Shown here piece after piece: positions 8,409-60,860 of a stretch of DNA of 64,000 bases. The notes under the pieces were generated by a model. The model ran no database searches and was not told the origin of the DNA. It saw nothing but the letters and a program-made list of their open reading frames with translations. The DNA lies in assembly GCA_964432275.1 (NCBI GenBank), contig CAYSMH010000002.1, positions 9,418 through 73,417 of the forward strand. The letters run 5' to 3'. Positions within the stretch are counted from its first letter, which is position 1; each line of letters opens with the position of its first letter. A program made the position numbers and the translations under genes. This stretch comes from an uncultured Candidatus Saccharibacteria bacterium. GTDB lineage: Bacteria > Patescibacteriota > Minisyncoccia > Phycocordibacterales > UBA9973.

Positions 8409-9146
8409 ATGGAACCAACCCTCCAGCAATTCCAGGTTAAACACGATACCTTTGAAGGACCGATCGAAGTCCTTTTGGAATTGATTGAAAAACGTAAACT
8501 TTTTGTCAACGACGTCTCACTGGCATCCGTCACGGATGACTTCATTTCGTACATCCAATCCAAAGGCATGCACCCTGATATGGTTGCAAACTTCTTGGCA
8601 GTCGCAGCAACACTGATATTGATCAAGGCACGATCACTTCTACCAAACCTCGAGCTCACCACAGAAGAATCTGAGTCAATCACAGATCTTGAACGACGAG
8701 TGGCACTCTATCAGATTATTTCGCACATATCAGGCGACCTGATCAAGCAGTATGGCAAAAAAGTCTCCTATGAAGGAACGGGTCTCCAAACAGGTCCTGT
8801 ATTTGCTCCAGACCCAAACCTGCACATAGAAGCACTATCCACACTTATCGATGGACTTGTCGAAAGAATGCCCAAACCTACACCTATCAAACCAGAGGCT
8901 CGAGTAACAGCTACCGTATCTATAGGAGAGGTTATCGATACACTCATAGAGCGCATCTCTCGCATGACATCGGGTACGTTTAACAGTATTCGCATGCATT
9001 CACCAGATGCCGATGATCGAAGTCAAAAAGTCTATACGATCGTATCATTTCTTGGTATGCTAGAGCTTGTCAGACGCGGTCTTTTGGCAGCTGAGCAATC
9101 AAATCAGTTTGAAGATATTCATCTTCAGCGACAACAAACCCTATGA
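8409..9146 (+). CDS. scpA: segregation and condensation protein A
   Basis: 245 aa; N-terminal FEGPIEVLLELIEKRKL matches the ScpA consensus FEGPLDLLLHLI; translationally coupled to scpB. Confidence 0.85.
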   Translation: MEPTLQQFQVKHDTFEGPIEVLLELIEKRKLFVNDVSLASVTDDFISYIQSKGMHPDMVANFLAVAATLILIKARSLLPNLELTTEESESITDLERRVALYQIISHISGDLIKQYGKKVSYEGTGLQTGPVFAPDPNLHIEALSTLIDGLVERMPKPTPIKPEARVTATVSIGEVIDTLIERISRMTSGTFNSIRMHSPDADDRSQKVYTIVSFLGMLELVRRGLLAAEQSNQFEDIHLQRQQTL

Positions 9147-9667
9147 AAAACGCCATCGAAGCCATCCTTCTTGCAACAGGTGAACCGCAGTCATTTGCGG
9201 TCCTTGCCAAACATCTTGATACTGACGTAGATACTATCGGTACAGCGGTACAGGAACTTATCGCAAGTATGGAGGGGCACGGTATTGTGGTCACTGAACT
9301 CAACCAAGTAGTAAGTCTTGTTACTCGTAGTGACCATGCGCCAATCATCGAAAAGATTCGTAAAGATGAACTTTCAAAAGAGCTTTCTAAGGCATCTGCA
9401 GAAACACTTGCGATTATTGCATATAGCCCAGGGGTAACCAAAAGTCAGATTGAGTTTATTCGTGGGGTCAACGTCTCATATAGTTTGAGATCGCTTCAAA
9501 TGAGAGGTTTAATCGAATCTAAAGGTGTAGGGAGAAGTGTCGGATACTACCCAACATCAGACCTACTCAACCATTTTGGAGTGACATCACTTGATGGGTT
9601 GCCTGCCTATACTGAAACCAAGACAAAGCTCGACACCCTCCTTAGCAGTAGCGAACCAGCACAATGA
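9143..9667 (+). CDS. scpB: segregation and condensation protein B
   Basis: 174 aa; tandem winged-helix ScpB pattern (AIEAILLATGEP..., GVTKSQIEFIRGV); ATGA overlap with mraY start. Confidence 0.85.
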   Translation: MKNAIEAILLATGEPQSFAVLAKHLDTDVDTIGTAVQELIASMEGHGIVVTELNQVVSLVTRSDHAPIIEKIRKDELSKELSKASAETLAIIAYSPGVTKSQIEFIRGVNVSYSLRSLQMRGLIESKGVGRSVGYYPTSDLLNHFGVTSLDGLPAYTETKTKLDTLLSSSEPAQ

Positions 9668-10740
9668 TCACGCTTAACGTCATCAAAATTTTCTTACCCA
9701 CTGCACTTGCCTTCCTTATAGGTATTGCGATCACGCCAAGACTCACGGATTTCATGTACAAGCATAAACTCTGGAGACGCCGACCCCGCACCGATGGAGA
9801 AACTATTACCAACACTGATTTTGCAAAACTCAACAACAGCCAAGCTGAAGTTTCAACACCGCGTGTAGGAGGTGTCATTATCTGGCTCTCAGTAACCGCA
9901 ACCATTGCACTTATGTGGATCGTATCACGAGTATTTCCTTCAGACCTTTCTACGAAGCTTGATTTTTATAGTCGTAGCCAAACTTTAGTACCTCTTGCAA
10001 GTCTTGTCTTTGGAAGCTTGCTTGGGCTCCTGGATGACTTTTTTGAAATACGAGGCAGAAGTGGGGTAACTCATGCCAATGACAAAGAGATCAAGTTTCG
10101 GTATATCAAGATTGGATTGATTTGTATCGTGGGGCTCGTTATCGGTGCATGGTTTTATGTGAAGCTTGGTATGACTGGTATTGCAATACCATTTACGGCT
10201 TCTACACTAACGCTTGGTAGTCTGTTTATTCCATTCTTCATTTTGATACTTGTTGCAGTATTTTCAGGAGGGGTGATCGATGGTATGGACGGCCTCGCAG
10301 GTGGAGTGCTTGCCATCATATTTGCTGCATATTCGATTATTGCATTTGGACAAAACCAGATCGACATTGCAGCATTTTGTGGGGTGATTGCTGGGGCAAT
10401 ATTGGCATTTTTATGGTTCAACATCCCACCTGCACGATTCTACATGGGCGAAACAGGTATGATGGGACTCCTTGTCGTACTCACTGTAGTTGCATTTCTC
10501 ACCGATACTGTGTTGTTACTCCCACTTATCGCATTTCCACTTGTTGCCTCAAGCGCATCTTCTCTTATCCAAATCTTTTCATACAAATATTGCGGCAAAC
10601 GACGCGTGTTTCGTGTAGCACCACTTCATCACCATTTCCATGCGATCGGTTGGTCTCGAGAAAAAATCGTTATGAGATACTGGGTTGTTAGTATTATTGT
10701 TGCGATCCTTGGTGTTGTAATCGCACTTATTAGTAATTAA
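9664..10740 (+). CDS. mraY: phospho-N-acetylmuramoyl-pentapeptide transferase (GT4 MraY/WecA family)
   Basis: 358 aa polytopic membrane protein; GLLDDFFEIRG (DDxxD-like), GGVIDGMDGLAGG, C-terminal APLHHHFHAIGW; context with ftsW-murG. Confidence 0.75.
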   Translation: MITLNVIKIFLPTALAFLIGIAITPRLTDFMYKHKLWRRRPRTDGETITNTDFAKLNNSQAEVSTPRVGGVIIWLSVTATIALMWIVSRVFPSDLSTKLDFYSRSQTLVPLASLVFGSLLGLLDDFFEIRGRSGVTHANDKEIKFRYIKIGLICIVGLVIGAWFYVKLGMTGIAIPFTASTLTLGSLFIPFFILILVAVFSGGVIDGMDGLAGGVLAIIFAAYSIIAFGQNQIDIAAFCGVIAGAILAFLWFNIPPARFYMGETGMMGLLVVLTVVAFLTDTVLLLPLIAFPLVASSASSLIQIFSYKYCGKRRVFRVAPLHHHFHAIGWSREKIVMRYWVVSIIVAILGVVIALISN

Positions 10741-10741
10741 T

Positions 10742-11866
10742 ATGCGAACAATTATCACAAAAGAATCTCAAAAACCCTTTGATCGATACTTTCTAGGGAT
10801 TGTGGCAGTTATCACCCTGATTGGCTTGTTTTCATTCGTATCGGCTAGTCTAGGGATTCTTGCAAAAAGTGAGAGCAAGTTTTACGGCGTATTGTTTAAC
10901 CAGTTAGTTCTTGGTCTAGTAGGCGGATCAATAGCGCTATGGGTAACTATGCACATCCCGTATGTACTCTGGCGAAAACATGCCTTTTATATATTCCTTG
11001 CGACACTTATTCTTACACTTCTTGTTTTTATTCCAAGTCTTGGATTTGAGCATGGAGGTGCACAGCGATGGATTTCTATTGGGGCACTCTCTTTTCAACC
11101 AGCAGAATTTCTCAAGCTTGGCTTTGTTATTTATTTTGCGACCTGGCTTGCGTGGACCCACAAACAAAAACAAGAACTACGATTTAAAATTCTACCCCTT
11201 ATCATTCTTTTAGGTATCGTTGCTGCTATTTTACTCAAACAGCCTGATACAAAAAGCCTGATACTGATCACAACCGCTGCATGTGCTATGTTATTTGTCT
11301 CTGGAGTTTCTTGGAAAAAGATAGGGATTATCGTTGCGGTGGGAATTATTGGAATCACTCTACTTGCATTCATTCGTCCATACGTAATGGAACGTATTGA
11401 AACATTTATTAATCCATCATCAGACCCACGCGGTTCATCCTATCAGCTACAGCAATCACTGATCGCTATCGGCTCAGGGGGTATGTTTGGGCGTGGGCTT
11501 GGACAGAGTGTACAAAAATTTGGCTACCTCCCAGAACCACAAGGTGACTCAGTGTTTGCGGTTATAGGTGAAGAGTGGGGGTTTATAGGTTCAGGTATAC
11601 TGGTTGTATTGTATATTTTCTTGGCAGTCCGAGGGCTCAAGATAGCACTGCGTGCACCAGATACCTTCGCACGGTATCTCGTTGTAGGTATCACTACGCT
11701 CATCACTGCGCAGTCATTTCTCAACATCGCATCTCTTCTTGGGCTTTTTCCACTGACCGGTGTGCCACTGGTTTTTATCTCTCACGGAGGTACATCGCTT
11801 GCGATCGCACTTGCAGCAGTCGGTATTATTCTTAATGTGTCAAGATACCAAAAAAAGGTATACTAA
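10742..11866 (+). CDS. ftsW: SEDS-family peptidoglycan glycosyltransferase FtsW/RodA
   Basis: 374 aa; ~10 TM helices; conserved QPAEFLKLGFVIYFATWL and C-terminal SHGGTSLAIA motifs. Confidence 0.85.
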   Translation: MRTIITKESQKPFDRYFLGIVAVITLIGLFSFVSASLGILAKSESKFYGVLFNQLVLGLVGGSIALWVTMHIPYVLWRKHAFYIFLATLILTLLVFIPSLGFEHGGAQRWISIGALSFQPAEFLKLGFVIYFATWLAWTHKQKQELRFKILPLIILLGIVAAILLKQPDTKSLILITTAACAMLFVSGVSWKKIGIIVAVGIIGITLLAFIRPYVMERIETFINPSSDPRGSSYQLQQSLIAIGSGGMFGRGLGQSVQKFGYLPEPQGDSVFAVIGEEWGFIGSGILVVLYIFLAVRGLKIALRAPDTFARYLVVGITTLITAQSFLNIASLLGLFPLTGVPLVFISHGGTSLAIALAAVGIILNVSRYQKKVY

Positions 11867-11873
11867 TAGTCAT

Positions 11874-13010
11874 ATGAAAATCCTACTCACAGGCGGCGGC
11901 ACTGGCGGACATTTCTACCCACTTATAGCGATTGCCGAAGAACTCAACAAGCTGGCAGACGAAGAGCGCATCATCAACATGAAGCTCTATTACATGTCAG
12001 ATAAACCATATGACCCTGATATACTCGAGGAGCAATTCATTACATTTATCCCAATTACTGCAGGGAAGCTGCGCATATATTTCTCGTTTAGAAATATACT
12101 CGACATTGGTAAAACGATCATTGGAGTCATCACGAGCTTGTTCAAGGTGTTTAAACTCTACCCTGACGTTATTATTTCTAAGGGTGGCTATGCAGCATTT
12201 CCAGTACTTGTGGCAGCGAAACTTCTCCGTATACCAACCATTATTCACGAGAGTGATACCGTACCGGGAAGAGTAAACAAATGGTCGGGTACATTTGCTC
12301 GACGTATTGCGCTCTCGTATCCTGAAGCAGCGCAATACTTCGACTCAAAAAAAATAGCAGTAACAGGGCAACCGGTTCGCAAAAACTTTATTCACCCCGT
12401 ACGCGAAGGTGCTAAAGAATTTTTTGAACTTCCCAACAACTTACCTGTAATCGGTATCTATGCAGGATCACTCGGAGCAAAAGCAATCAATGACGTAGTT
12501 GTAAATATCGTTCCTGAGTTAATAAAAAAGTATCAAATTATCCATCAAACAGGGGAGAAAACTTATGACGATGTTACTACTGAAGTACGCATCTCTCTTG
12601 GAGATGACACCAAGCGTAGTCGATACAAGGCATTCAAATCACTCAACAGTGTTCAATCCAAAGTGTTTGCAGGAGCAGTAGATCTCGTCATCGGCCGTGC
12701 AGGTTCTAGTATATTTGAGTTTGCAGCATGGGGTAAACCATCTATTATCATTCCTGGTAGAGGTGAAGTATTTCATGGAGATCATCAACGCAAAAATGCA
12801 TACCACTATGCACGTACCGGTGCTTGTGTAGTCATTGAAGAGACAAACCTTACTGCATCAGTACTATTGAGTGAAATTGAATCTATTTTAAGCAATAAAG
12901 AGCTTTATGAGGCTATGAGTAAGCATGCCCATGATTTCTTTATTCCTACTGCAAGTCGAATGATCGCAACCGAAGCACTAACTATTGCTCTATCTCACGA
13001 GAAACAATAA
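11874..13010 (+). CDS. murG: UDP-N-acetylglucosamine--N-acetylmuramyl-(pentapeptide) pyrophosphoryl-undecaprenol GlcNAc transferase
   Basis: N-terminal MKILLTGGGTGGHFYPLIAIAEEL (MurG G-loop); upstream GTG extension to 11760 overlaps ftsW and is rejected. Confidence 0.85.
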   Translation: MKILLTGGGTGGHFYPLIAIAEELNKLADEERIINMKLYYMSDKPYDPDILEEQFITFIPITAGKLRIYFSFRNILDIGKTIIGVITSLFKVFKLYPDVIISKGGYAAFPVLVAAKLLRIPTIIHESDTVPGRVNKWSGTFARRIALSYPEAAQYFDSKKIAVTGQPVRKNFIHPVREGAKEFFELPNNLPVIGIYAGSLGAKAINDVVVNIVPELIKKYQIIHQTGEKTYDDVTTEVRISLGDDTKRSRYKAFKSLNSVQSKVFAGAVDLVIGRAGSSIFEFAAWGKPSIIIPGRGEVFHGDHQRKNAYHYARTGACVVIEETNLTASVLLSEIESILSNKELYEAMSKHAHDFFIPTASRMIATEALTIALSHEKQ

Positions 13011-13848
13011 AACCTTTTTGCTGTGCGTATACATACGTAAACGATGCTCCCAAGAAAAATATCTGAGCAGAGTAATATATCCATACCAACATACCTACAA
13101 GGGAGGATGCTCCTCCAAAAACGTCTGTGTGTACCAAAAGTTTGATGTACTCTGTAATGAGTATATTTCCTACCATAAACAGTACAGACGTAATACATGC
13201 CCCCATACAGACGACGCTCCACGGCAAGGTACGATTTGGCAGTACTCGATAGATAACCATAAACAAAATAGTACTCAAAACAAGTGGTACAACAACTTGA
13301 AACAGTGAGGCAACAAACGAGAGTTGCGGGAGTAAGTTTACGGTAGACTGTGCAATAGAAATGAAAAAAGTGAGTCCAATTGATACTGCAAGAAGAATTG
13401 CAAGAAGAGGAATGAAGGCTAGTACGGCTATTTTCTCATGAAGAAATATGCCTATCTTGCGAAGGAGAGAAGTATGCTTCTTTTTCAGTAAAGGTGTGAC
13501 ATCCCAAAGTTCATCAAGATCACGATCGAGCTCCGAAAACACACCAATAGCACCGATTAGAAATATTGTCGCACTGACCATGGCTGCACTGACCGAAATA
13601 TCTTGGAGTGGAGTATTGTGAAGTATTTCACTGATATACAACGAAGCATTGCTTCCTACGGTTACTACGAGCTGGTGCATCAATGCATTTTCAACAACAT
13701 CTTTACTAAAAAGTAGTGCTGCAGCACTCACTACCAGCACAATAAGAGGTACGAATGAGAGCATCGCATAGTAGGAGAGTGCTGCACCCATTCTTGGTGC
13801 GTTATGACTATTCCAGTGTCGGAAAGATTTAAGTATGAGAGTTTTCAT
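12982..13848 (-). CDS. YihY/BrkB-family membrane protein
   Basis: Motif GAALSYYAMLSFVPLIVLV followed by multiple TM helices; ORF track extends to a TTG at 13932, but that extension would contain the LexA-box promoter, so ATG 13848 is preferred. Confidence 0.7.
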   Translation of the reverse strand: MKTLILKSFRHWNSHNAPRMGAALSYYAMLSFVPLIVLVVSAAALLFSKDVVENALMHQLVVTVGSNASLYISEILHNTPLQDISVSAAMVSATIFLIGAIGVFSELDRDLDELWDVTPLLKKKHTSLLRKIGIFLHEKIAVLAFIPLLAILLAVSIGLTFFISIAQSTVNLLPQLSFVASLFQVVVPLVLSTILFMVIYRVLPNRTLPWSVVCMGACITSVLFMVGNILITEYIKLLVHTDVFGGASSLVGMLVWIYYSAQIFFLGASFTYVYAQQKGFIVSREIEQ

Positions 13849-13900
13849 ACCTTGTAGTATATATGTTTTTTGAAATTTAGACTTATCCACAGCTTTTTTC

Positions 13901-13929
13901 TTGCATGTGAACGAACGTTCACCTATACT
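13901..13929 (+). promoter_or_regulatory. sigma70-like promoter with an embedded Cheo-type LexA (SOS) box
   Basis: -35 ttgcat (13901-13906), 17-nt spacer, -10 tatact (13924-13929); the spacer is GTGAAC-gaac-GTTCAC, matching GAAC-N4-GTTC; lexA lies ~450 bp downstream on the same strand. Confidence 0.5.
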
Positions 13930-13974
13930 CAATACAGGTCGCGATTATTATAAATAACTTGTCTTACCACTTTT

Positions 13975-14163
13975 ATGACACGACACCAATACACACAAAA
14001 CATTCACAAACAACTACAAGCACTAAACAAAAGGATCGATTATAAAATCATGCACGGACAGAGTTATATAGATGATTCTCGCCGTCACAAAGCACTCTTA
14101 CGTCAAATCAGCCGACAAACAAAGCAAGGATTCCTCGCACGTTTATTTCCAAGTCTCGCATAA
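13975..14163 (+). CDS. small basic hypothetical protein (62 aa), candidate SOS-regulated sORF
   Basis: ATG ORF immediately downstream of the LexA-box promoter; no homology recognised; could instead be part of a long lexA leader. Confidence 0.3.
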   Translation: MTRHQYTQNIHKQLQALNKRIDYKIMHGQSYIDDSRRHKALLRQISRQTKQGFLARLFPSLA

Positions 14164-14168
14164 CTACT

Positions 14169-14354
14169 ATGAACACCCCATTTAAATCACTTATACATCA
14201 AGAAATGCTCCGTCTTGAGCAGTTGGTACACGAAAAAGACTCATTTTCAGGAAGCCTAACCCGATACGCTCGAAAAAACGGTATACTTCTTAACAAGCGC
14301 AAGCCTACATGGGGATGGTTCTCTATGGTTCGCGTTATGCAATTTCTCCTATAA
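14169..14354 (+). CDS. small hypothetical protein (61 aa), candidate SOS-regulated sORF
   Basis: ATG ORF between sORF1 and lexA in a third frame; no homology recognised. Confidence 0.25.
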   Translation: MNTPFKSLIHQEMLRLEQLVHEKDSFSGSLTRYARKNGILLNKRKPTWGWFSMVRVMQFLL

Positions 14355-14368
14355 CAATTATTACCACT

Positions 14369-14932
14369 ATGGATACCGACTACAAGAACAAACTTATCGC
14401 ATTTCATCACAGTCATAAACGTATGCCAACATACACTGAAATGCTGTCACTCTTTGGATTCAAATCCAAAAATGCTGTCGCACGTCTCGTCAATAAAATG
14501 ATTGCAGCAGGTATTGTCACCAAGGATAGGCTTGGAAAGCTTCTTCCTACTTCAATGTTTGATAGTATTCCACTTCTCGGCTCAGTCAAAGCAGGGTTTC
14601 CTTCTGCGGTAGATGAAGTTCTAGAATCGCTCAACCTTGAAGACTACCTAATCAAGAAAAAACGTGAGACGTACATGGTAGAAGTCGACGGAGATTCCAT
14701 GATAGAAGAGCATATCTGTGATGGTGACATTGTAATCGCAGAACGCACCAATATTGCTAAAAACGGTGATATCGTCATCGCAAATATTGACGGAGAATTC
14801 ACTATGAAATACCTACGTATCGATGGCAAAAAAAGTTGGCTCGAACCAGCGAACAAAGCATTCAAAGCTATGCACCCAAAAGAAAGTCTTACGGTGGTCG
14901 CTATTATTAGAGGAGTAATTCGTAAATACTAA
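14369..14932 (+). CDS. lexA: LexA repressor (S24 peptidase family)
   Basis: N-terminal wHTH (PTYTEMLSLFGFKSKNAVARLVNKMIAAGIV), Ala-Gly cleavage site in SVKAGFPSA, Ser in VDGDSMIEE and Lys in FTMKYLR; upstream ORF extension rejected. Confidence 0.85.
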   Translation: MDTDYKNKLIAFHHSHKRMPTYTEMLSLFGFKSKNAVARLVNKMIAAGIVTKDRLGKLLPTSMFDSIPLLGSVKAGFPSAVDEVLESLNLEDYLIKKKRETYMVEVDGDSMIEEHICDGDIVIAERTNIAKNGDIVIANIDGEFTMKYLRIDGKKSWLEPANKAFKAMHPKESLTVVAIIRGVIRKY

Positions 14933-15873
14933 CCGGGAGCTTCAACAGATGCTCGATTTGCAGCCTCCTTCTGTATGACAGGGAGGTTTTCTGTTATCAG
15001 AGTATTGAGTTCATCACTTGTAAGTGTTGTTGCGGTAGGATCTTGGGCAAGTTTTTTCCATGGAGCAGTCTTGTTGTATGCATATTCTCCAAAGACAATA
15101 ACAGGAGTACCTGAGGCAAGTTGTGTACTCTCATCAGATGAAAGAATCCACTGCTTTGCCCAGTCATAGACCCACTGTGCATCTTTTTCTGTCATGCGCA
15201 CACATGAGTGACTTGCAGGGTATCCAGGAAGTTCGTATTGGTGGAGTGAAATACCTTCCATGTTATCGAGGTTGAAATACCACGGCAAAATCCATTCATC
15301 TTGGATACTACTGACAACAAGCTTACCTTTCCAGTTTGTGAAATAGAGTTTGCTTGGAGTGGGGGTGTCTTTTTTGCCAGTACTAGTTACCATCCAGCGT
15401 ACGAGGGTGCCGTTTTCATATGCACCAATTGCTTGAATACGTTGAGAAACAAGCAGGAGTTGTGGGATATCTTTTGCTGCATCAAGGACTTGTGGGAACG
15501 GGGAAAGCGCGTCCCAATTGGTAAGATCTGAAGGAATAGTAATAGTTGTATTTTTAGAAATATGTTTATCATCCAAACGATTAAACGTAAGAACAAACCC
15601 GACATTGGAAAGACCAACCTCACGAGCAATCTCAGCACCTGGAGTATCGGTAGTAACAACTATACTGCGGTACGTAACCTTTGCTGGGGGAGTAATAGGT
15701 GCAGCCGGTTCAATTGGTTTTTCAACCAGCGGAGTATCAAGTACTACCGACACAGCATGATCTGGATGAATAGCTAGAACATACAAACCTGCACCCAGCA
15801 CAACAAGTGCAAGTGTCGAGACGACATGATGTCGTTGTAGCTTTTTATGCTTCATATATGTATTGTAACGCAC
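14929..15873 (-). CDS. L,D-transpeptidase (YkuD domain) with N-terminal membrane anchor and LysM-like segment
   Basis: Catalytic motif SLHQYELPGYPASHSCVRMTEKDAQWVYDWA...GTPVIVFG (His/Cys of YkuD); N-terminal TM helix. Confidence 0.8.
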   Translation of the reverse strand: MRYNTYMKHKKLQRHHVVSTLALVVLGAGLYVLAIHPDHAVSVVLDTPLVEKPIEPAAPITPPAKVTYRSIVVTTDTPGAEIAREVGLSNVGFVLTFNRLDDKHISKNTTITIPSDLTNWDALSPFPQVLDAAKDIPQLLLVSQRIQAIGAYENGTLVRWMVTSTGKKDTPTPSKLYFTNWKGKLVVSSIQDEWILPWYFNLDNMEGISLHQYELPGYPASHSCVRMTEKDAQWVYDWAKQWILSSDESTQLASGTPVIVFGEYAYNKTAPWKKLAQDPTATTLTSDELNTLITENLPVIQKEAANRASVEAPG

Positions 15874-17289: not shown

Positions 17290-17640
17290 ATGCAGACAGA
17301 CACCAATTACAAACCATTTTTAACCGCGCTTATTATCATTGGAATTATCATCATTATCATGCTGGCACGTCCTCGTATAGGGCAGCAGCGCTCATACTCT
17401 ATGAGTGGATACAACCTCAGTGCCAGTACAACGCGCTATATGCCTATAGAGCCTCCACGAGGCACATATAGCGTGATTCGCTACGTTCCTGAGCACCGTA
17501 CCACTCGATACTCTGTACCGACCTCATACAGCTACTCATACACGGACGGATACGCTCCAGATACGAGTGGGACCATGTTTCCAGATGGCTGCACTCTCAC
17601 GAGCCCATACAGTCTCACGACGGGGCTACCGTGTAGCTAA
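17290..17640 (+). CDS. hypothetical small membrane/secreted protein
   Basis: 116 aa; N-terminal TM helix (FLTALIIIGIIIIIML), Ser/Thr/Tyr-rich tail with two Cys; followed by a strong terminator. Confidence 0.4.
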   Translation: MQTDTNYKPFLTALIIIGIIIIIMLARPRIGQQRSYSMSGYNLSASTTRYMPIEPPRGTYSVIRYVPEHRTTRYSVPTSYSYSYTDGYAPDTSGTMFPDGCTLTSPYSLTTGLPCS

Positions 17641-18952: not shown

Positions 18953-19618
18953 ATGAACATGCTCATTGTTGAGGATGACGCTGATATACGATCGTATCTT
19001 TGTGAAGCATTTACTGATGAAGGGTTTATAGTCGACGAAGCTTCAGATGGATACGTAGGTCTGCAAAAAGCTCGTATCTCGTCATACGACATAATCGTCC
19101 TTGATTACAACCTCCCACACAAATCTGGTGGAGATATTTGCAAAGAATTACGCCAAAGCAACAGTACGAGTCGTATCATTATACTATCAGTCGTTGGAAC
19201 TATTCCAATAAAAGTTGACTTGCTCAACAGTGGCGCTGATGATTATCTAACTAAGCCGTTTGTATTTGGCGAACTTCTCGCACGAGTACGAGCACTTTTG
19301 CGAAGACCTACCAAACTCAAAGAACGAATGATACGCATCGGCAGTATTACGCTCGATATCGACCGACACCTTGTCACGAAAAAAGACGCTATAGTACTAC
19401 TGACTCCCAAAGAGTTTGCATTACTTGAATATTTTATGTGTCACGCAGGACAAATACTCTCACGCATGACGATACTTGAGCATGTATGGGGAGTAAATGC
19501 AGATCCATGCACCAACACCATCGAAACCCATGTACTAAATCTACGACGGAAGCTCAATGATCAAAACAAAGAGCTTATCCACACGATTCCCGGCGTCGGC
19601 TATAAACTAGTAGGGTAG
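18953..19618 (+). CDS. OmpR-family two-component response regulator
   Basis: REC domain (MNMLIVEDDADIR...DIIVLDYNLP...TKPF) plus winged-helix output (ILSRMTILEHVWG...IHTIPGVGYKL). Confidence 0.85.
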   Translation: MNMLIVEDDADIRSYLCEAFTDEGFIVDEASDGYVGLQKARISSYDIIVLDYNLPHKSGGDICKELRQSNSTSRIIILSVVGTIPIKVDLLNSGADDYLTKPFVFGELLARVRALLRRPTKLKERMIRIGSITLDIDRHLVTKKDAIVLLTPKEFALLEYFMCHAGQILSRMTILEHVWGVNADPCTNTIETHVLNLRRKLNDQNKELIHTIPGVGYKLVG

Positions 19619-53354: not shown

Positions 53355-56327
53355 TTATGCAGCTATTGATTCAACTTCTCTAGTAACTCGTTGCACTCCT
53401 TTATGCTGAAGCAATTTGTCCATATGATGATTGAAGCGATTGAGCAATATCTGCGATTTATGAATAATCATTTCTTCTGACGCTCCTTGCGTATAGTAAT
53501 ACCCCTCTCGCAAGGCACCTGTATCAAAGATTGATTGCTGTGGACTGCCGTCCATAATATCTCCATAATTTTCTTGCTTCATAGTATCGAGGACAGCTTT
53601 TGCATTAACGGGACTATTACTATCTTCCTGTGGCGGCTTCAAGAAGAAGTTATTGATATGAGTGAGCGCGTTCACAAAAGACTCGGTCTGTCTTCCGAAC
53701 ATATCACCACCGACTATCTGTATAGTAGCTGTAATATCCTTAACTTCTTTTCCTTCGGTGAGCTTTCTATTGCGTACAATATCAATATGCTCAGCTGTAT
53801 CAATATAGGAACCGTCCTTGGTAAGAACGTATCCATTGAGTTCGCTATCCACAAAAGAGGTGTTGTGCTGTTTAATAGCCTCCACAGTATCTGTCACTAA
53901 AGAAACCCATTCATAGAGAATGTCTCGCTCCTGGTCACTTTCAAATGGCTGTTGCAGCCAGCCATTATCAACCAGCATTTTCTCAAATTGGTCTGCAGTA
54001 GTAGGTATAGTGCCAAGGTCTGCAGTTTCTGATATGTATTTGTTGGCAATCTGCATGGCAATACCCGCATGATGTGACGTGAGAATTGCCTTTTCAAACT
54101 GCTCTACACTATCGGTTGCCATACCCTTGATTTCACAGCGACGACCTTTTTGTTCGCTATCCTCAAAATGATCAAAGTTCTTACTATGGATATCTTTTGT
54201 GTTGTTCACATCCTTACCAGCAGTTATTCCTGTAAGCTGTGCCATAGTCATAACGTTGTTCAAGAAATACATTTGACCATCTACTTCTAGCCCTCCATCC
54301 CCAACGAGTGATAGGTGGTACCCTCGAGCAGCCTTATCATACCGATCAAAATTAAAATCAAGGAAACCTGCATCTTGTAAAAGCTTAACCTCCGCCATGA
54401 GCATGTAGGGATTATAGTTAGGTCGTAGAGCAATTTCGTGAATACCATCATTACCTCTTCCAATATTTGCGCTCTTGCTCACTAGTTGGATATCTTTTTT
54501 GTATCCCAACATGCTCGTATTGCCATATTCCTCGCCAACAGACCCTGTGACTTCATATTCTATACCCATCGAAACTCTGGCATCTTTCGGGATTGCGTCG
54601 TGGTTATATTTGTTGAGCACGGTTTCTATTGATTCCATTTTCCCGACGAATTGATCAGGATTCTCTGTGCCGTACGCAGACAGTGCAATAGCGATCAGGT
54701 TCTGCCCCTTTTTGCCGTGTTGACTCTCAAACCGCTCCAAGATTTCCAAAATGCTTTTTGGCAGTCGCTCTCTATTTTCAGACGCCCAAAAAGATTCTTG
54801 AATGTGTTTATTGTTTAGTATCTTTTCCTCATTATTAATTCCGTTTTTTTCTTTATCCTGTATCTTTTCAAAGGCAATGTCATATACGGTAGACTGCTCT
54901 GAATAGCCATCTCTAAGGAATGGGAAGTTCTCGATAGTTCGTGCAGCTTCCTCAAAGTTTAACTCTTGCGCACGTATGTCTAATACATTCTTTATTTTCT
55001 CTTTGACTTCTTCAGACTCAAGAATCTCCTGCGGGATGCCATAGTGATCAATAAAATCAACTAATGTTTCTGGTCGTATAGATGCAATGCTTGGCAGAGA
55101 ATTGTATATGGTTTTTGTTATAACTTCTTTTTGTAAATCGAATTTCCTAATGATGTCATCAATGTCGCTACGGACAGAACTATCAGACCCATATTGTGTG
55201 ATTCTTGCCTCTATACATTTCAAGGCAGATCCCTGCATCTCCGGAGATGCAAGTGCTTCTCGAGAAAAATCAAAATATTCCAAAATCCTCTTTGTTTGGA
55301 AATAATGCTCTCCTCTTGGTAGAAATTTTAGCAACCCTTCCAATACTTTACTCTTGGTCTCTTCTGAGTTTTTCTCTTTTTCAAGGTTCTCAAATTTTGT
55401 AGCGATATTGAAGAAATCATAAAATCTACCTGTTGTTAGATAATCATTCAGAACATGCTTCAAAATTTCAGTTTTTACTTCACTGCTGAGATTCTTTGAT
55501 TTTTTTACGTATTCTATGGTTGCTTCAACTCGGCCATCTTGTATATCATTCTTGAGTACAGTAAAATCTTCTGCATCGATGCCTTGGAACTTATCCACAA
55601 ATTCCATTACATACCTTCCATATCCGAGCGCAGCAAGTTGATGAAATGCATCTTTGCTGTATTTGCCATCTGGCGCATTTTCAAGCGCACCATCAACTTG
55701 ATAGGTGTTTCTTTCTTTTGATTCCGCAAGTGCAATAAGAAATGACTCCGGTGCTGTGGTACAGGTACCATAACTTCCGAAGTAATTACCATGATCGGAA
55801 TCAGTGAGATTATTTTTGAATTTCGTCTTCAGCAGCGCCTCAATGTCTGATTCTGAGAATCTGTGTTTCTCCCCGTATCCCACTACATAGTCCCGAATAT
55901 CGCGTATGTTCCAGTTCTCATTTTCATAACTTTTGCTATATTTTTTTACATCGGAATAGTCCTCCTCATAGAGTAGCGCAATTTTTGCTTTCTTTACTAG
56001 CTCAGGATCAACTGGGATCTTTCTCGTGTAGTCACGACTATCTTCCAGTACTTTTCTAATTCTAAAATTCAACAAGTCTTTTGCCGCTACAATAGTTTCT
56101 TCCGGACCTTCGGTAAGTTGGTTATCTGCGGTCTGGATCGTCTTTACGTCCTCATACAAGCGATCCATAGTCTCCTGCTCATACTGCTCGAGCGATACTC
56201 CATCTGGTTTCATAATCTCCAAAAGTGGAACTATTTCTTTGTGATATATGGCTTCCGCCCTATCTGCAGCCGTTTCTTGGCTTTCCAGAGGGGTAATTTC
56301 TTCGAGCTGAGGGAGTGATTCTTTCAT
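53355..56327 (-). CDS. hypothetical very large soluble protein (~990-1008 aa); weak, unverified resemblance to GS-like amidoligase strands in one segment
   Basis: Continuous ORF to 56381 (alternative ATG; the first 18 codons look non-native, so MKESLPQ at 56327 is preferred); no Walker, HExxH or GxSxG motifs; segment RVSMGIEYEVTGS...NDGIHEIALRP...GYHLSLVGDGG has a GxExE-like pattern. Confidence 0.55.
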   Translation of the reverse strand: MKESLPQLEEITPLESQETAADRAEAIYHKEIVPLLEIMKPDGVSLEQYEQETMDRLYEDVKTIQTADNQLTEGPEETIVAAKDLLNFRIRKVLEDSRDYTRKIPVDPELVKKAKIALLYEEDYSDVKKYSKSYENENWNIRDIRDYVVGYGEKHRFSESDIEALLKTKFKNNLTDSDHGNYFGSYGTCTTAPESFLIALAESKERNTYQVDGALENAPDGKYSKDAFHQLAALGYGRYVMEFVDKFQGIDAEDFTVLKNDIQDGRVEATIEYVKKSKNLSSEVKTEILKHVLNDYLTTGRFYDFFNIATKFENLEKEKNSEETKSKVLEGLLKFLPRGEHYFQTKRILEYFDFSREALASPEMQGSALKCIEARITQYGSDSSVRSDIDDIIRKFDLQKEVITKTIYNSLPSIASIRPETLVDFIDHYGIPQEILESEEVKEKIKNVLDIRAQELNFEEAARTIENFPFLRDGYSEQSTVYDIAFEKIQDKEKNGINNEEKILNNKHIQESFWASENRERLPKSILEILERFESQHGKKGQNLIAIALSAYGTENPDQFVGKMESIETVLNKYNHDAIPKDARVSMGIEYEVTGSVGEEYGNTSMLGYKKDIQLVSKSANIGRGNDGIHEIALRPNYNPYMLMAEVKLLQDAGFLDFNFDRYDKAARGYHLSLVGDGGLEVDGQMYFLNNVMTMAQLTGITAGKDVNNTKDIHSKNFDHFEDSEQKGRRCEIKGMATDSVEQFEKAILTSHHAGIAMQIANKYISETADLGTIPTTADQFEKMLVDNGWLQQPFESDQERDILYEWVSLVTDTVEAIKQHNTSFVDSELNGYVLTKDGSYIDTAEHIDIVRNRKLTEGKEVKDITATIQIVGGDMFGRQTESFVNALTHINNFFLKPPQEDSNSPVNAKAVLDTMKQENYGDIMDGSPQQSIFDTGALREGYYYTQGASEEMIIHKSQILLNRFNHHMDKLLQHKGVQRVTREVESIAA

Positions 56328-56469
56328 ATTTTCTCTGGTGACCTCAGTATAACAACAGAGTATAAAAACACCATAAGGCATTAAAAGTCTCTATCTGTTA
56401 TAGGCTCACCTTTTAGAGAGCGCTCGAGTAGTGTCAAAGTTCTCTTATTTTATCTGTCTAAGATATAAT

Positions 56470-60179: not shown

Positions 60180-60860
60180 TTATGCAATATTTGCTTCTTT
60201 GAGTTCAGTAGGAAGTTCGGTGACAGGTTCCACAGTGATATCTTCGGTACCTCGGCGAGTAAGTGTGCGATACAGGTATGCGAGGAGAAGTGTCGCAAGT
60301 GGGTACGCGACGATGATACCAATACCAAACAGCACCATCCCTACTATCACCAGACACACAACAACAAGTATAGTCAGTAACACCGTCCAAAACACATCTC
60401 GACTGACAAGTCTCCATGAATCCTTGATCGCAGCGATTGCACCGCCTTTGTTATCCACAAGTGAGAGCTGAGAAAACACAAATCGCGTCATGAAATAAAT
60501 ACCAGGAATAATCAAAAGAAAGAATCCACCAATCACCATCAGTGCAGTCAAAAGTGCGACTTTAACAAGAAGAATAAATTGACGAAATGTCGGCAAATGT
60601 TTGCCTAGTGCACGAAACGAAAGCAGATCATGCTTGGCATCTACCGCAGCAAGCGACACAGATAGCCATACGTACGAAAAAATCAGAGACAGTATCATCC
60701 CAGCTATTTGCAAAAGAATATAGCGACCATCCTCGATTTGACCAGGTGCACTAAGAACAATAAGTATCACTGTCATACCTATGTAAAACCAAGGTCGTTC
60801 TTTAAATATGCCCCAGCAGGTACGGAGCGCTGTTTTGATAGAAAAGGTAAATGGAGTCAT
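60180..60860 (-). CDS. hypothetical polytopic membrane protein (DUF975/YciC-like topology?)
   Basis: Start MTPFTFSIK at 60860 (4-nt overlap with ftsI stop); ORF-track extension overlaps ftsI and is rejected; ~6 TM helices. Confidence 0.5.
   Translation of the reverse strand: MTPFTFSIKTALRTCWGIFKERPWFYIGMTVILIVLSAPGQIEDGRYILLQIAGMILSLIFSYVWLSVSLAAVDAKHDLLSFRALGKHLPTFRQFILLVKVALLTALMVIGGFFLLIIPGIYFMTRFVFSQLSLVDNKGGAIAAIKDSWRLVSRDVFWTVLLTILVVVCLVIVGMVLFGIGIIVAYPLATLLLAYLYRTLTRRGTEDITVEPVTELPTELKEANIA

Follow-up and report, generated by a model that had tools for sequence, protein, structure and literature searches.

In Gram-positive bacteria, the gene for the SOS repressor LexA is autoregulated: its operator, the Cheo/DinR box (CGAAC-N4-GTTCG), lies over its own promoter, and its product carries an Ala-Gly cleavage site and a Ser/Lys dyad. 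Here we describe a lexA locus with the same organization, found in a 64,000-nucleotide stretch of contig CAYSMH010000002.1 (the window, to which all unlabeled coordinates refer) from an uncultivated Paceibacteria bacterium of the Patescibacteria, or candidate phyla radiation (CPR). The operator type and the autoregulation of lexA are textbook knowledge, and the palindromic GAAC-N4-GTTC core is shared. In contrast to Cheo/DinR loci, however, the box here has T/A rather than C/G flanks (GTGAAC...GTTCAC), as is true of 98% of related sites (TGAAC...GTTCA). Its center lies 455 bp from the lexA ATG, and one or two small genes come first; in the window these are the small open reading frames sORF1 and sORF2. 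Moreover, the Pfam LexA_DNA_bind profile gives no score on the window LexA, which indicates that the N-terminal domain of this protein is divergent.

The genes for Gram-positive SOS division inhibitors are small, sequence-diverse, and characteristically located beside lexA (PMC6851548). Like YneA, SosA, ChiZ/Rv2719c, and DivS, the small proteins here are lineage-specific and encoded beside lexA under a LexA box. However, the genes for those inhibitors are divergent from lexA, whereas the sORFs are co-directional with it and upstream in its transcript. The inhibitors also have a single transmembrane segment and often a LysM domain, neither of which is present in the sORF products, and there is no sequence similarity between the two groups. 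In Pseudomonas, lexA and sulA are co-transcribed from a LexA-repressed promoter, and the downstream gene, sulA, encodes an FtsZ-binding division inhibitor of ~160 aa with an alpha/beta fold. By comparison, the proteins considered here are 60-aa helical hairpins encoded upstream of lexA. A further analogue is YnzC of Bacillus subtilis (UPF0291/DUF896, PDB 2HEP), which like the sORF1 product is a small helical hairpin genetically tied to lexA and the SOS response; its gene comes third in the SOS-induced operon yneA-yneB-ynzC beside lexA. YnzC differs in lacking an amphipathic tail, has no detectable homology to sORF1, and is not among the Foldseek matches of sORF1 in the PDB.

The Escherichia coli genes uvrB, recN, and dinJ are under joint control by DnaA and LexA (PMC6015884). 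There, as at the lexA operon described here, a DnaA box and a LexA box occupy one SOS promoter region. The present arrangement differs in that the two sites belong to the master repressor's own promoter; the lone DnaA box, a consensus copy, lies phased upstream of the −35 element without overlapping the LexA box and is conserved across a whole class of bacteria. We know of no report of co-regulation by DnaA and LexA at lexA itself, nor, to our knowledge, has joint wiring through phased adjacent sites been described for any lexA gene.

Patescibacteria are uncultivated, have genomes of <1 Mb, and possess very few regulators. We are aware of no account of how DNA damage is coupled to the cell cycle in these organisms. 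The LexA network of Patescibacteria, and thus the same regulator in the same superphylum, was reportedly examined by Sanchez-Osuna, Barbe and Erill in 2017 (Environ Microbiol 19:3465), and that work may already describe the box. Outside that study, which was not part of the comparison, we found no literature description of the sORF1 and sORF2 families, of their constant location at the start of the lexA operon, or of the phased DnaA box. What we consider new is that an orphan small protein is encoded by the first gene of the lexA operon in all 77 species-level genomes with complete upstream sequence, that one clade carries what is probably a duplicated copy of it, and that a consensus DnaA box is phased beside the LexA-occluded promoter. 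The locus is a concrete candidate for the DNA-damage response of tiny-genome CPR bacteria, and its small proteins could turn out to include a novel effector of the SOS response or a novel modulator of LexA.

A predicted LexA operator fills the promoter spacer ahead of lexA

The plus strand from 13901 to 13929 reads TTGCAT-GTGAACGAACGTTCAC-C-TATACT. A repeat finder identified in this segment the arms GTGAACG (13907–13913) and CGTTCAC (13916–13922), which are 100% complementary and lie 2 nt apart. The resulting 7+2+7 palindrome, together with one additional base, makes up the entire 17-nt spacer (13907–13923) between the −35 and −10 hexamers (Table 1). An earlier note on this DNA had called the site a near-perfect operator of the Cheo type. 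Its assignment as a LexA-type operator stands, as does the GAAC-N4-GTTC core, but the palindrome is perfect and its T/A flanks are not the C/G flanks (CGAAC...GTTCG) of a Cheo box.

Chance counts, like the position-specific scoring matrix (PSSM) scan mentioned below, covered the 64-kb window. The core GAAC-N4-GTTC is matched once against 1.0 match expected by chance, which is not significant, and the 16-mer palindrome at ≤2 mismatches is matched twice against 2.8 expected. The significance of the operator derives instead from its conservation across related loci. The window LexA has thousands of close relatives, labeled Paceibacterota, Nomurabacteria, or Patescibacteria, and our comparison set comprised the best 80 GTDB species-representative loci, with LexA proteins 59 to 88% identical. 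The box site is readable in 75 of these, the other five having a contig end or N masking over the site. Promoters with full flanks, used for hexamer and spacing counts, number 73; loci with complete sequence upstream of lexA number 77; and the flanks scanned for motifs total 593 kb. Three extra loci (L081, L083, and L085) were reached independently, with members of the sORF1 family as the entry point.

The box occupies the identical −35/−10 spacer in 75 of 75 readable GTDB promoters, as well as in the three extra loci. In the 75 GTDB loci it takes the form GTG(A/T)ACGnnCGTTCAC upstream of lexA, with GTAC in one arm in six of them, and the family consensus is GTGAACGnnCGTTCAC. We name GTGAACGnnCGTTCAC and CGAACGnnCGTTCG as the motif pair for scanning Paceibacteria genomes. 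Among the 73 full promoters, the hexamer abutting the box on its upstream side is TTGCAT in 33 and TTGACT in 14, with other TTGnnn sequences in most of the remainder, whereas the hexamer 1 nt past the box is TATACT in 57 and TATAAT in 12. The −35 hexamer of the window matches TTGACA at only three of six positions, which explains why a generic promoter scan missed this promoter. Away from the lexA-operon promoter, GAAC-N4-GTTC has only five matches in the scanned flanks, two of which are promoters of second lexA genes (see below).

The architecture of the box is kept although the flanking genes differ between loci, and the register of box, −35, and −10 in this sigma-70-type promoter is fixed in 73 of 73 promoters. 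This is in agreement with the earlier proposal of a LexA operator placed inside a promoter in a manner suited to repression by occlusion. We make the assignment of operator, promoter, and operon with high confidence, and autorepression of the lexA operon by promoter occlusion is well supported.

The comparison also suggests where transcription begins. In five relatives (L058, L061, L063, L072, and L078), the sORF1 ATG is located 6 nt past the −10 hexamer, and the operon mRNAs of these relatives are probably leaderless. This spacing implies a transcription start 7 nt past the −10, or at about 13936 in the window, and the leaderless relatives lend support both to the promoter and to the sORF1 start codon. 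Of 76 related promoters, 32 carry the tetranucleotide GTCG 8 to 10 nt past the −10, compared with a background of 2.8%. In the window it spans 13938–13941, within AGGTCGCGATTA, corresponding to about +2 to +4 of the predicted transcript. We also considered an RNA element in the 5′ untranslated region (UTR) and rejected it: there is no covariation in eight close relatives, folding z-scores average +0.25 across 62 UTRs, and no Rfam match is found in the region.

Two small protein-coding genes separate the operator from lexA

Downstream of the promoter, sORF1, sORF2, and lexA each lie in a different frame and are separated by 5 and 14 nt. The terminator scan found no plus-strand terminator-like site between them, and no Shine–Dalgarno sequence is visible before any of the three. 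Two layouts exist among the related loci. The order box-sORF1-sORF2-lexA is present in 27 loci, including the window, and box-sORF1-lexA in about 50. In the two-gene layout, the sORF1 stop is ≤15 nt from the lexA start in ~30 of 42 loci; the gap is 3 nt in 12 loci, and there is an 8-nt overlap in two. The tight spacing and the lack of an intervening plus-strand terminator agree with the earlier suggestion that the promoter serves lexA across two intervening ORFs. In the window, the operon is taken to end at lexA because the next gene, the L,D-transpeptidase gene ykuD, is convergent. The lexA stop overlaps the ykuD stop by 4 nt (14929–14932), and the weak hairpin with a T-run that follows lexA (Table 1), which falls inside the 3′ end of ykuD, may be due to chance.

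By ORF extraction and alignment, a homologue of sORF1 directly precedes lexA, or sORF2-lexA, in 77 of 77 complete loci, and partial copies are present at two contig ends. A tblastn search placed sORF1 directly upstream of lexA in 68 loci (E 1e-35 to 2e-6), and look-ups that started from sORF1 family members found lexA adjacent in three of three. The orphan sORF1 family consists of basic helical-hairpin proteins, generally of 60 to 70 aa. An exhaustive profile search gathered 382 family clusters at 50% identity, all of them stand-alone proteins of 48 to 106 aa. The consensus is M-x-x-x-Q-Y-x-K-x-I-E-x-E-L-x-x-L-N-x-x-I-D-x-K-I-x-x-G-x-x-Y-x-x-E-A-R-x-H-K-x-L-L, followed by a basic stretch and a tail such as F-F-x-R-L-F, with N18, I21, D22, I25, and Y31 invariant.

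At the sORF2 position, an alignable ORF of 54 to 75 aa is found in 27 of 27 three-gene loci. Its product begins with a helix resembling a coiled coil (TPFxxLxxxExxRLE) and, after a variable, basic central portion, ends in a tail that is hydrophobic or amphipathic (for example LLARVFGN or FLLQLF). The sORF2 family aligns start to start with the sORF1 family (hhalign probability 68%, E 4.7e-5). This match and the shared design suggest that sORF2, which is clade-specific and evolves faster, is probably a diverged duplicate, or paralogue, of sORF1.

Both ORFs are under purifying selection. For the closest pairs, the ratio of nonsynonymous to synonymous substitution rates (dN/dS) is 0.04 to 0.09 for sORF1 and 0.04 to 0.12 for sORF2, compared with 0.01 to 0.05 for lexA. 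The proportion of nonsynonymous differences (pN) is well below that of synonymous differences (pS) in all pairs, and synonymous sites are saturated in most. Conservation and substitution ratios of the two ORFs, named in the earlier note as a check, are thus those of genuine genes, and we hold it to be almost certain that both are coding. Their database relatives are all unnamed or annotated as "hypothetical protein," so that two real genes of ~60 aa have been without a description in public annotations. Searches of Pfam (with the single sequences and with 96 sORF1 and 27 sORF2 family members), NCBIfam, PHROGs, and PDB sequence profiles returned no relatives, and an exact look-up of the window sORF2 retrieved no contig record.

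The lexA product itself matches Peptidase_S24 in Pfam (E 8.8e-26) and the NCBIfam equivalog TIGR00498 with 115.1 bits (cut-off 110.95), the latter covering residues 15 to 186. The best of its full-length matches to PDB LexA profiles is with Thermotoga maritima LexA (3k2z, E 1.8e-26), and PDB LexA chains align to it from residues 10 to 13 onward. Residues A75-G76 (VKAG), S110, and K147 are invariant in 31 LexA homologues. The VKAG site aligns with the AAG of E. coli LexA, and the S110 motif GDSM aligns with GESM in T. maritima and GMSM in E. coli. On the evidence of these alignments, which take in the N-terminal winged-helix DNA-binding domain, the protein is a bona fide LexA, with a full-length match rather than a match to UmuD, and RecA-stimulated self-cleavage is predicted for it.

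Table 1. Coordinates of the features of the lexA operon and its borders in the window
Feature	Position	Strand	Basis
DnaA-box consensus 9-mer, TTATCCACA	13883–13891	+	Exact match, 9 nt upstream of −35
−35 hexamer, TTGCAT	13901–13906	+	Sequence read; TTGnnn in most related promoters
Predicted LexA operator, GTGAACG-AA-CGTTCAC (core GAAC-N4-GTTC)	13907–13922	Strandless	Repeat finder and conservation
−10 hexamer, TATACT	13924–13929	+	1 nt past box in related promoters
Predicted transcription start (~13936) and conserved initial transcribed sequence, AGGTCGCGATTA	13936–13947	+	Leaderless relatives
sORF1, 62-aa basic helical hairpin with amphipathic tail KQGFLARLFPSLA; first operon gene	13975–14163	+	Conservation, dN/dS, AlphaFold2 model
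sORF2, 61-aa basic protein, clade-specific	14169–14354	+	Conservation in 27 loci, dN/dS
lexA, 187 aa from conserved Met	14369–14932	+	S24 domain, TIGR00498, PDB LexA match
Terminator-like hairpin and T-run after lexA, weak	14967–14996	+	Terminator scan
brkB/yihY, corrected start ATG 13848, 288 aa; bounds operon	12982–13848	−	Orthologue alignment

A consensus DnaA box is phased upstream of the promoter

The promoter region contains a second conserved element that the earlier note had missed and that we regard as new, namely a phased DnaA box. The exact 9-mer TTATCCACA is present in 63 of 73 related promoters, in the same orientation in 60 and inverted in three. Its distances to the −35 hexamer form clusters at 9 to 10 nt (40 loci), 19 to 20 nt (8 loci), and 1 nt (5 loci), which are separated from each other by about one helical turn. 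Of 75 exact copies in the 593 kb of loci, 65 are located at the lexA-operon promoter. The gene upstream of the operon is not constant: ~10 loci have brkB there, others have murG, and the rest have unrelated genes, which indicates that the site belongs to the lexA operon. On this comparative evidence, the phased DnaA box probably adds an input from replication status to the lexA promoter.

The window as a whole contains four exact copies of TTATCCACA against 0.5 expected. The three further copies, at 19575–19583, 55591–55599, and 60451–60459, are all on the plus strand. One is located at a response-regulator gene's 3′ end, and a histidine-kinase gene follows 95 nt later; the other two lie inside minus-strand genes.

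Repair genes and second lexA genes in related loci point to a link between the box and DNA repair

Two relatives possess a second lexA paralogue that is not accompanied by a small ORF (L016:7460–8060 and L066:1830–3701). The spacer of the second-lexA promoter carries CCGAACGnnCGTTCGG, with CGAAC...GTTCG flanks, and the L066 site reads CCGAACGAACGTTCGG. These differences suggest that some genomes have two LexA proteins whose operators differ slightly in their flanks. In L066, the second lexA is followed by a 415-aa ORF that reads from its sequence as a Y-family polymerase.

In two-gene loci, genes for repair functions begin 1 to 39 nt after lexA. A helicase of ~560 aa, assigned to the PIF1 family by Pfam in L083, starts 14 to 27 nt after lexA in at least 12 loci of the two-gene clade (helicase-bearing loci are L026, L030, L045, L049, L054, L059, L063, L068, L071, L074, L076, L079, and L083). 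In L027 and L043, the genes after lexA were read from sequence as an MGMT-type methyltransferase or RarA, and in L085 lexA is followed by a 3-methyladenine glycosylase gene. These repair genes are probably operon extensions under the same box. Together with the box at second lexA genes, their presence in lexA operons implies that the box controls repair functions in the relatives.

The small proteins are basic, predicted to be helical, and without transmembrane segments

The AlphaFold2 model of sORF1, computed with 96 family sequences, has a predicted local distance difference test (pLDDT) score of 89 and consists of two helices, residues 3 to 26 and 32 to 57, followed by a tail of lower confidence (pLDDT 57–72). 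The sORF2 model is of low confidence (pLDDT 65) and shows a helix at either end with disorder between them. The net charges of the two proteins are +9 and +6. Neither family has a transmembrane segment: the Kyte–Doolittle maximum over 19 residues is ≤0.94, and no member among 78 sORF1 and 27 sORF2 sequences exceeds 1.6. The tails of the sORF products are amphipathic, with median hydrophobic moments of 0.5 to 0.6 (0.59 for the sORF1 family) compared with 0.45 for the E. coli MinD tail. The membrane-targeting sequence of that protein is KGFLKRLFGG (PMC5471200), and the window sORF1 tail KQGFLARLFPSLA, which includes GFLARLF, resembles it. Membrane docking of this tail is a prediction.

Several candidate identities for the small proteins were tried and rejected. 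Resemblance to XseB or CsoR received no score in support, homology to YnzC was given an hhalign probability of 0.2%, and DUF896 was not among the matches listed for sORF1 (25 of 29 Pfam families, 96 members). Transmembrane-type division inhibitors do not fit proteins that lack a transmembrane segment, nor do type I SOS toxins (TisB/DinQ), which are hydrophobic transmembrane peptides of <40 aa with an antisense RNA, given products of 61 to 62 aa without such a segment and no Rfam match in the region.

Possible roles of the small proteins

We propose that sORF1-sORF2-lexA of this Paceibacteria bacterium is an autoregulated SOS operon whose sORFs are effectors, and we judge this account as a whole to have an even chance of being correct. 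In the proposed scheme, a LexA dimer would bind GTGAACG-nn-CGTTCAC, fill the −35/−10 spacer, and exclude RNA polymerase. DNA damage would stimulate, through RecA, self-cleavage of LexA at A75-G76 by the catalytic residues S110 and K147, thereby freeing the promoter. A single transcript would then yield a burst of the two small basic helical proteins along with fresh LexA, which would shut the operon again. The sORF1 protein and its probable paralogue sORF2 would meanwhile attach to the membrane and most likely hold back division or envelope synthesis for as long as repair is under way, and the phased DnaA box upstream of the −35 would feed in replication status.

The specific role of the sORFs as membrane-acting SOS effectors that delay cell division is a tentative part of this scheme. 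It is suggested by the parallel with Gram-positive division inhibitors encoded beside lexA and with lexA-sulA, and by the fact that the operon adjoins mraY-ftsW-murG. The earlier idea that the sORFs might be SOS-induced effectors fits the present data.

A number of points weigh against the scheme. The known lexA-linked inhibitors (YneA, SosA, ChiZ) contain a transmembrane segment, and their genes diverge from lexA; the sORFs encode no such segment and share the lexA transcript. Basal synthesis together with LexA from one transcript would be awkward for a potent division inhibitor, and the tight coupling to lexA, with its 3-nt gaps and 8-nt overlaps, fits a LexA partner equally well. The sORF1 fold is a generic helical hairpin that carries no functional information; a Foldseek search of the PDB returned no meaningful match among solved structures. 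The earlier note had looked to further sites of the motif at other SOS genes, but a PSSM built from the related sites detected no second LexA box in the 64-kb window, and our motif survey of SOS genes covered the window and the fetched lexA loci, which do not include recA or uvr loci. Binding of LexA at the palindrome, like that of DnaA at TTATCCACA, is predicted from sequence. Lastly, a paper citing the 2017 study groups the published Patescibacteria LexA motif with direct repeats, unlike the strict palindrome here.

Much of the same evidence can be read in terms of LexA itself. The sORF1 product, with or without that of sORF2, could act on LexA, as its partner or modulator, and be produced in a constant ratio to it, serving as a co-repressor, an anti-repressor, a tuner of self-cleavage, or a membrane tether. 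The gene is found only beside the primary lexA, both in the 77 complete loci and in the three look-ups begun from sORF1; second lexA paralogues lack it. Its close spacing to lexA is typical of translationally coupled partners, and its upstream position on the same transcript means that it is made whenever LexA is made. Yet there is no homology to known modulators of LexA or RecA, sORF2 intervenes between sORF1 and lexA in 27 loci, and an amphipathic membrane-type tail would be unexpected in a DNA-bound co-repressor. We consider a LexA partner possible, though doubtful, and about as probable as the membrane-acting effector role. The proposal can be widened to accommodate either function. In that form, sORF1 is an obligate SOS component, a membrane-docking hairpin held in fixed ratio to LexA that either signals to the division or envelope machinery or tunes LexA, and the promoter integrates DnaA and LexA inputs; we give this composite somewhat less than an even chance.

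The remaining explanations are improbable even when taken together. A role for the small proteins as SOS-induced toxins or persistence factors that act on the membrane, depolarizing it upon strong induction in the manner of TisB or DinQ, would suit two small, strongly cationic proteins with amphipathic helices under a LexA-controlled promoter, but we think it quite unlikely. They have no hydrophobic transmembrane helix, and nothing points to an antisense RNA or antitoxin, the only minus-strand candidates of the promoter scan being two weak ones inside lexA. Obligatory co-transcription with an essential repressor would furthermore imply constant basal synthesis of a toxin. Finally, the whole 60-residue hairpin is conserved, and with its invariant polar residues N18, D22, and Y31 this suggests a specific binding partner rather than disruption of lipid. 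Less probable still is the notion that the palindrome is a chance occurrence or the site of another regulator, with lexA not autoregulated here. The motif count in the window equals the chance expectation, no other SOS gene there bears the motif, and the case for LexA binding is built on sequence comparison; however, the box stands in register at every readable orthologous promoter and has a core identical to that of the Gram-positive LexA box. The same core recurs in the spacer of a second-lexA promoter, upstream of a Y-family polymerase, while being nearly absent elsewhere in the 593 kb. We attach next to no credence to the reading of both ORFs as non-coding, whether as a long leader, which the earlier note had offered and which does not hold, or as upstream ORFs with irrelevant peptides. 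The missing Shine–Dalgarno sequences and the failure of the products to match any known family would be in keeping with it, but lexA here likewise lacks a Shine–Dalgarno sequence. Full-length amino acid conservation in 77 sORF1 and 27 sORF2 loci despite saturated synonymous sites, a pN far below pS, the low dN/dS of the closest pairs, the confident structural model of sORF1, and the leaderless sORF1 mRNAs of five relatives all speak for translation.

The divergent brkB/yihY gene and other neighbors

On its upstream side, the operon is bounded by the divergent gene brkB/yihY. The annotated TTG start would give a 316-aa protein (12982–13932, minus strand) whose reading frame crosses the −10, the LexA box, the −35, and the DnaA box. 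The Pfam BrkB domain begins only at residue 42 of this extended form. All nine divergent brkB orthologues start at a Met aligned with M29 of that form, which corresponds to the ATG at 13848, and all nine have an in-frame stop ahead of the LexA box. The start is corrected accordingly; the earlier note had argued against the TTG start from the position of the box. Apparent tblastn conservation of the extended N terminus most likely reflects opposite-strand translation of conserved promoter DNA, considering the in-frame stops in all relatives. A minus-strand TATACT (13856–13861) lies 7 nt before the brkB ATG, with the same arrangement in relatives, and the gene may be leaderless.

Beyond brkB, the operon adjoins scpA-scpB-mraY-ftsW-murG (8409–13010). 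In L008, L011, L012, L015, and L046, murG is directly upstream of sORF1 on the same strand.

Two further ORFs were observed away from the operon. On the minus strand, positions 53355–56381 hold a 1008-aa ORF that matches nothing in Pfam at E ≤0.001. On the plus strand, an ORF at 17290–17640 has a counterpart in L016 (7076–7423), and both encode proteins of 115 to 116 aa with an N-terminal hydrophobic segment and the C-terminal sequence DGCTLTSPYSxTTGxPCS.

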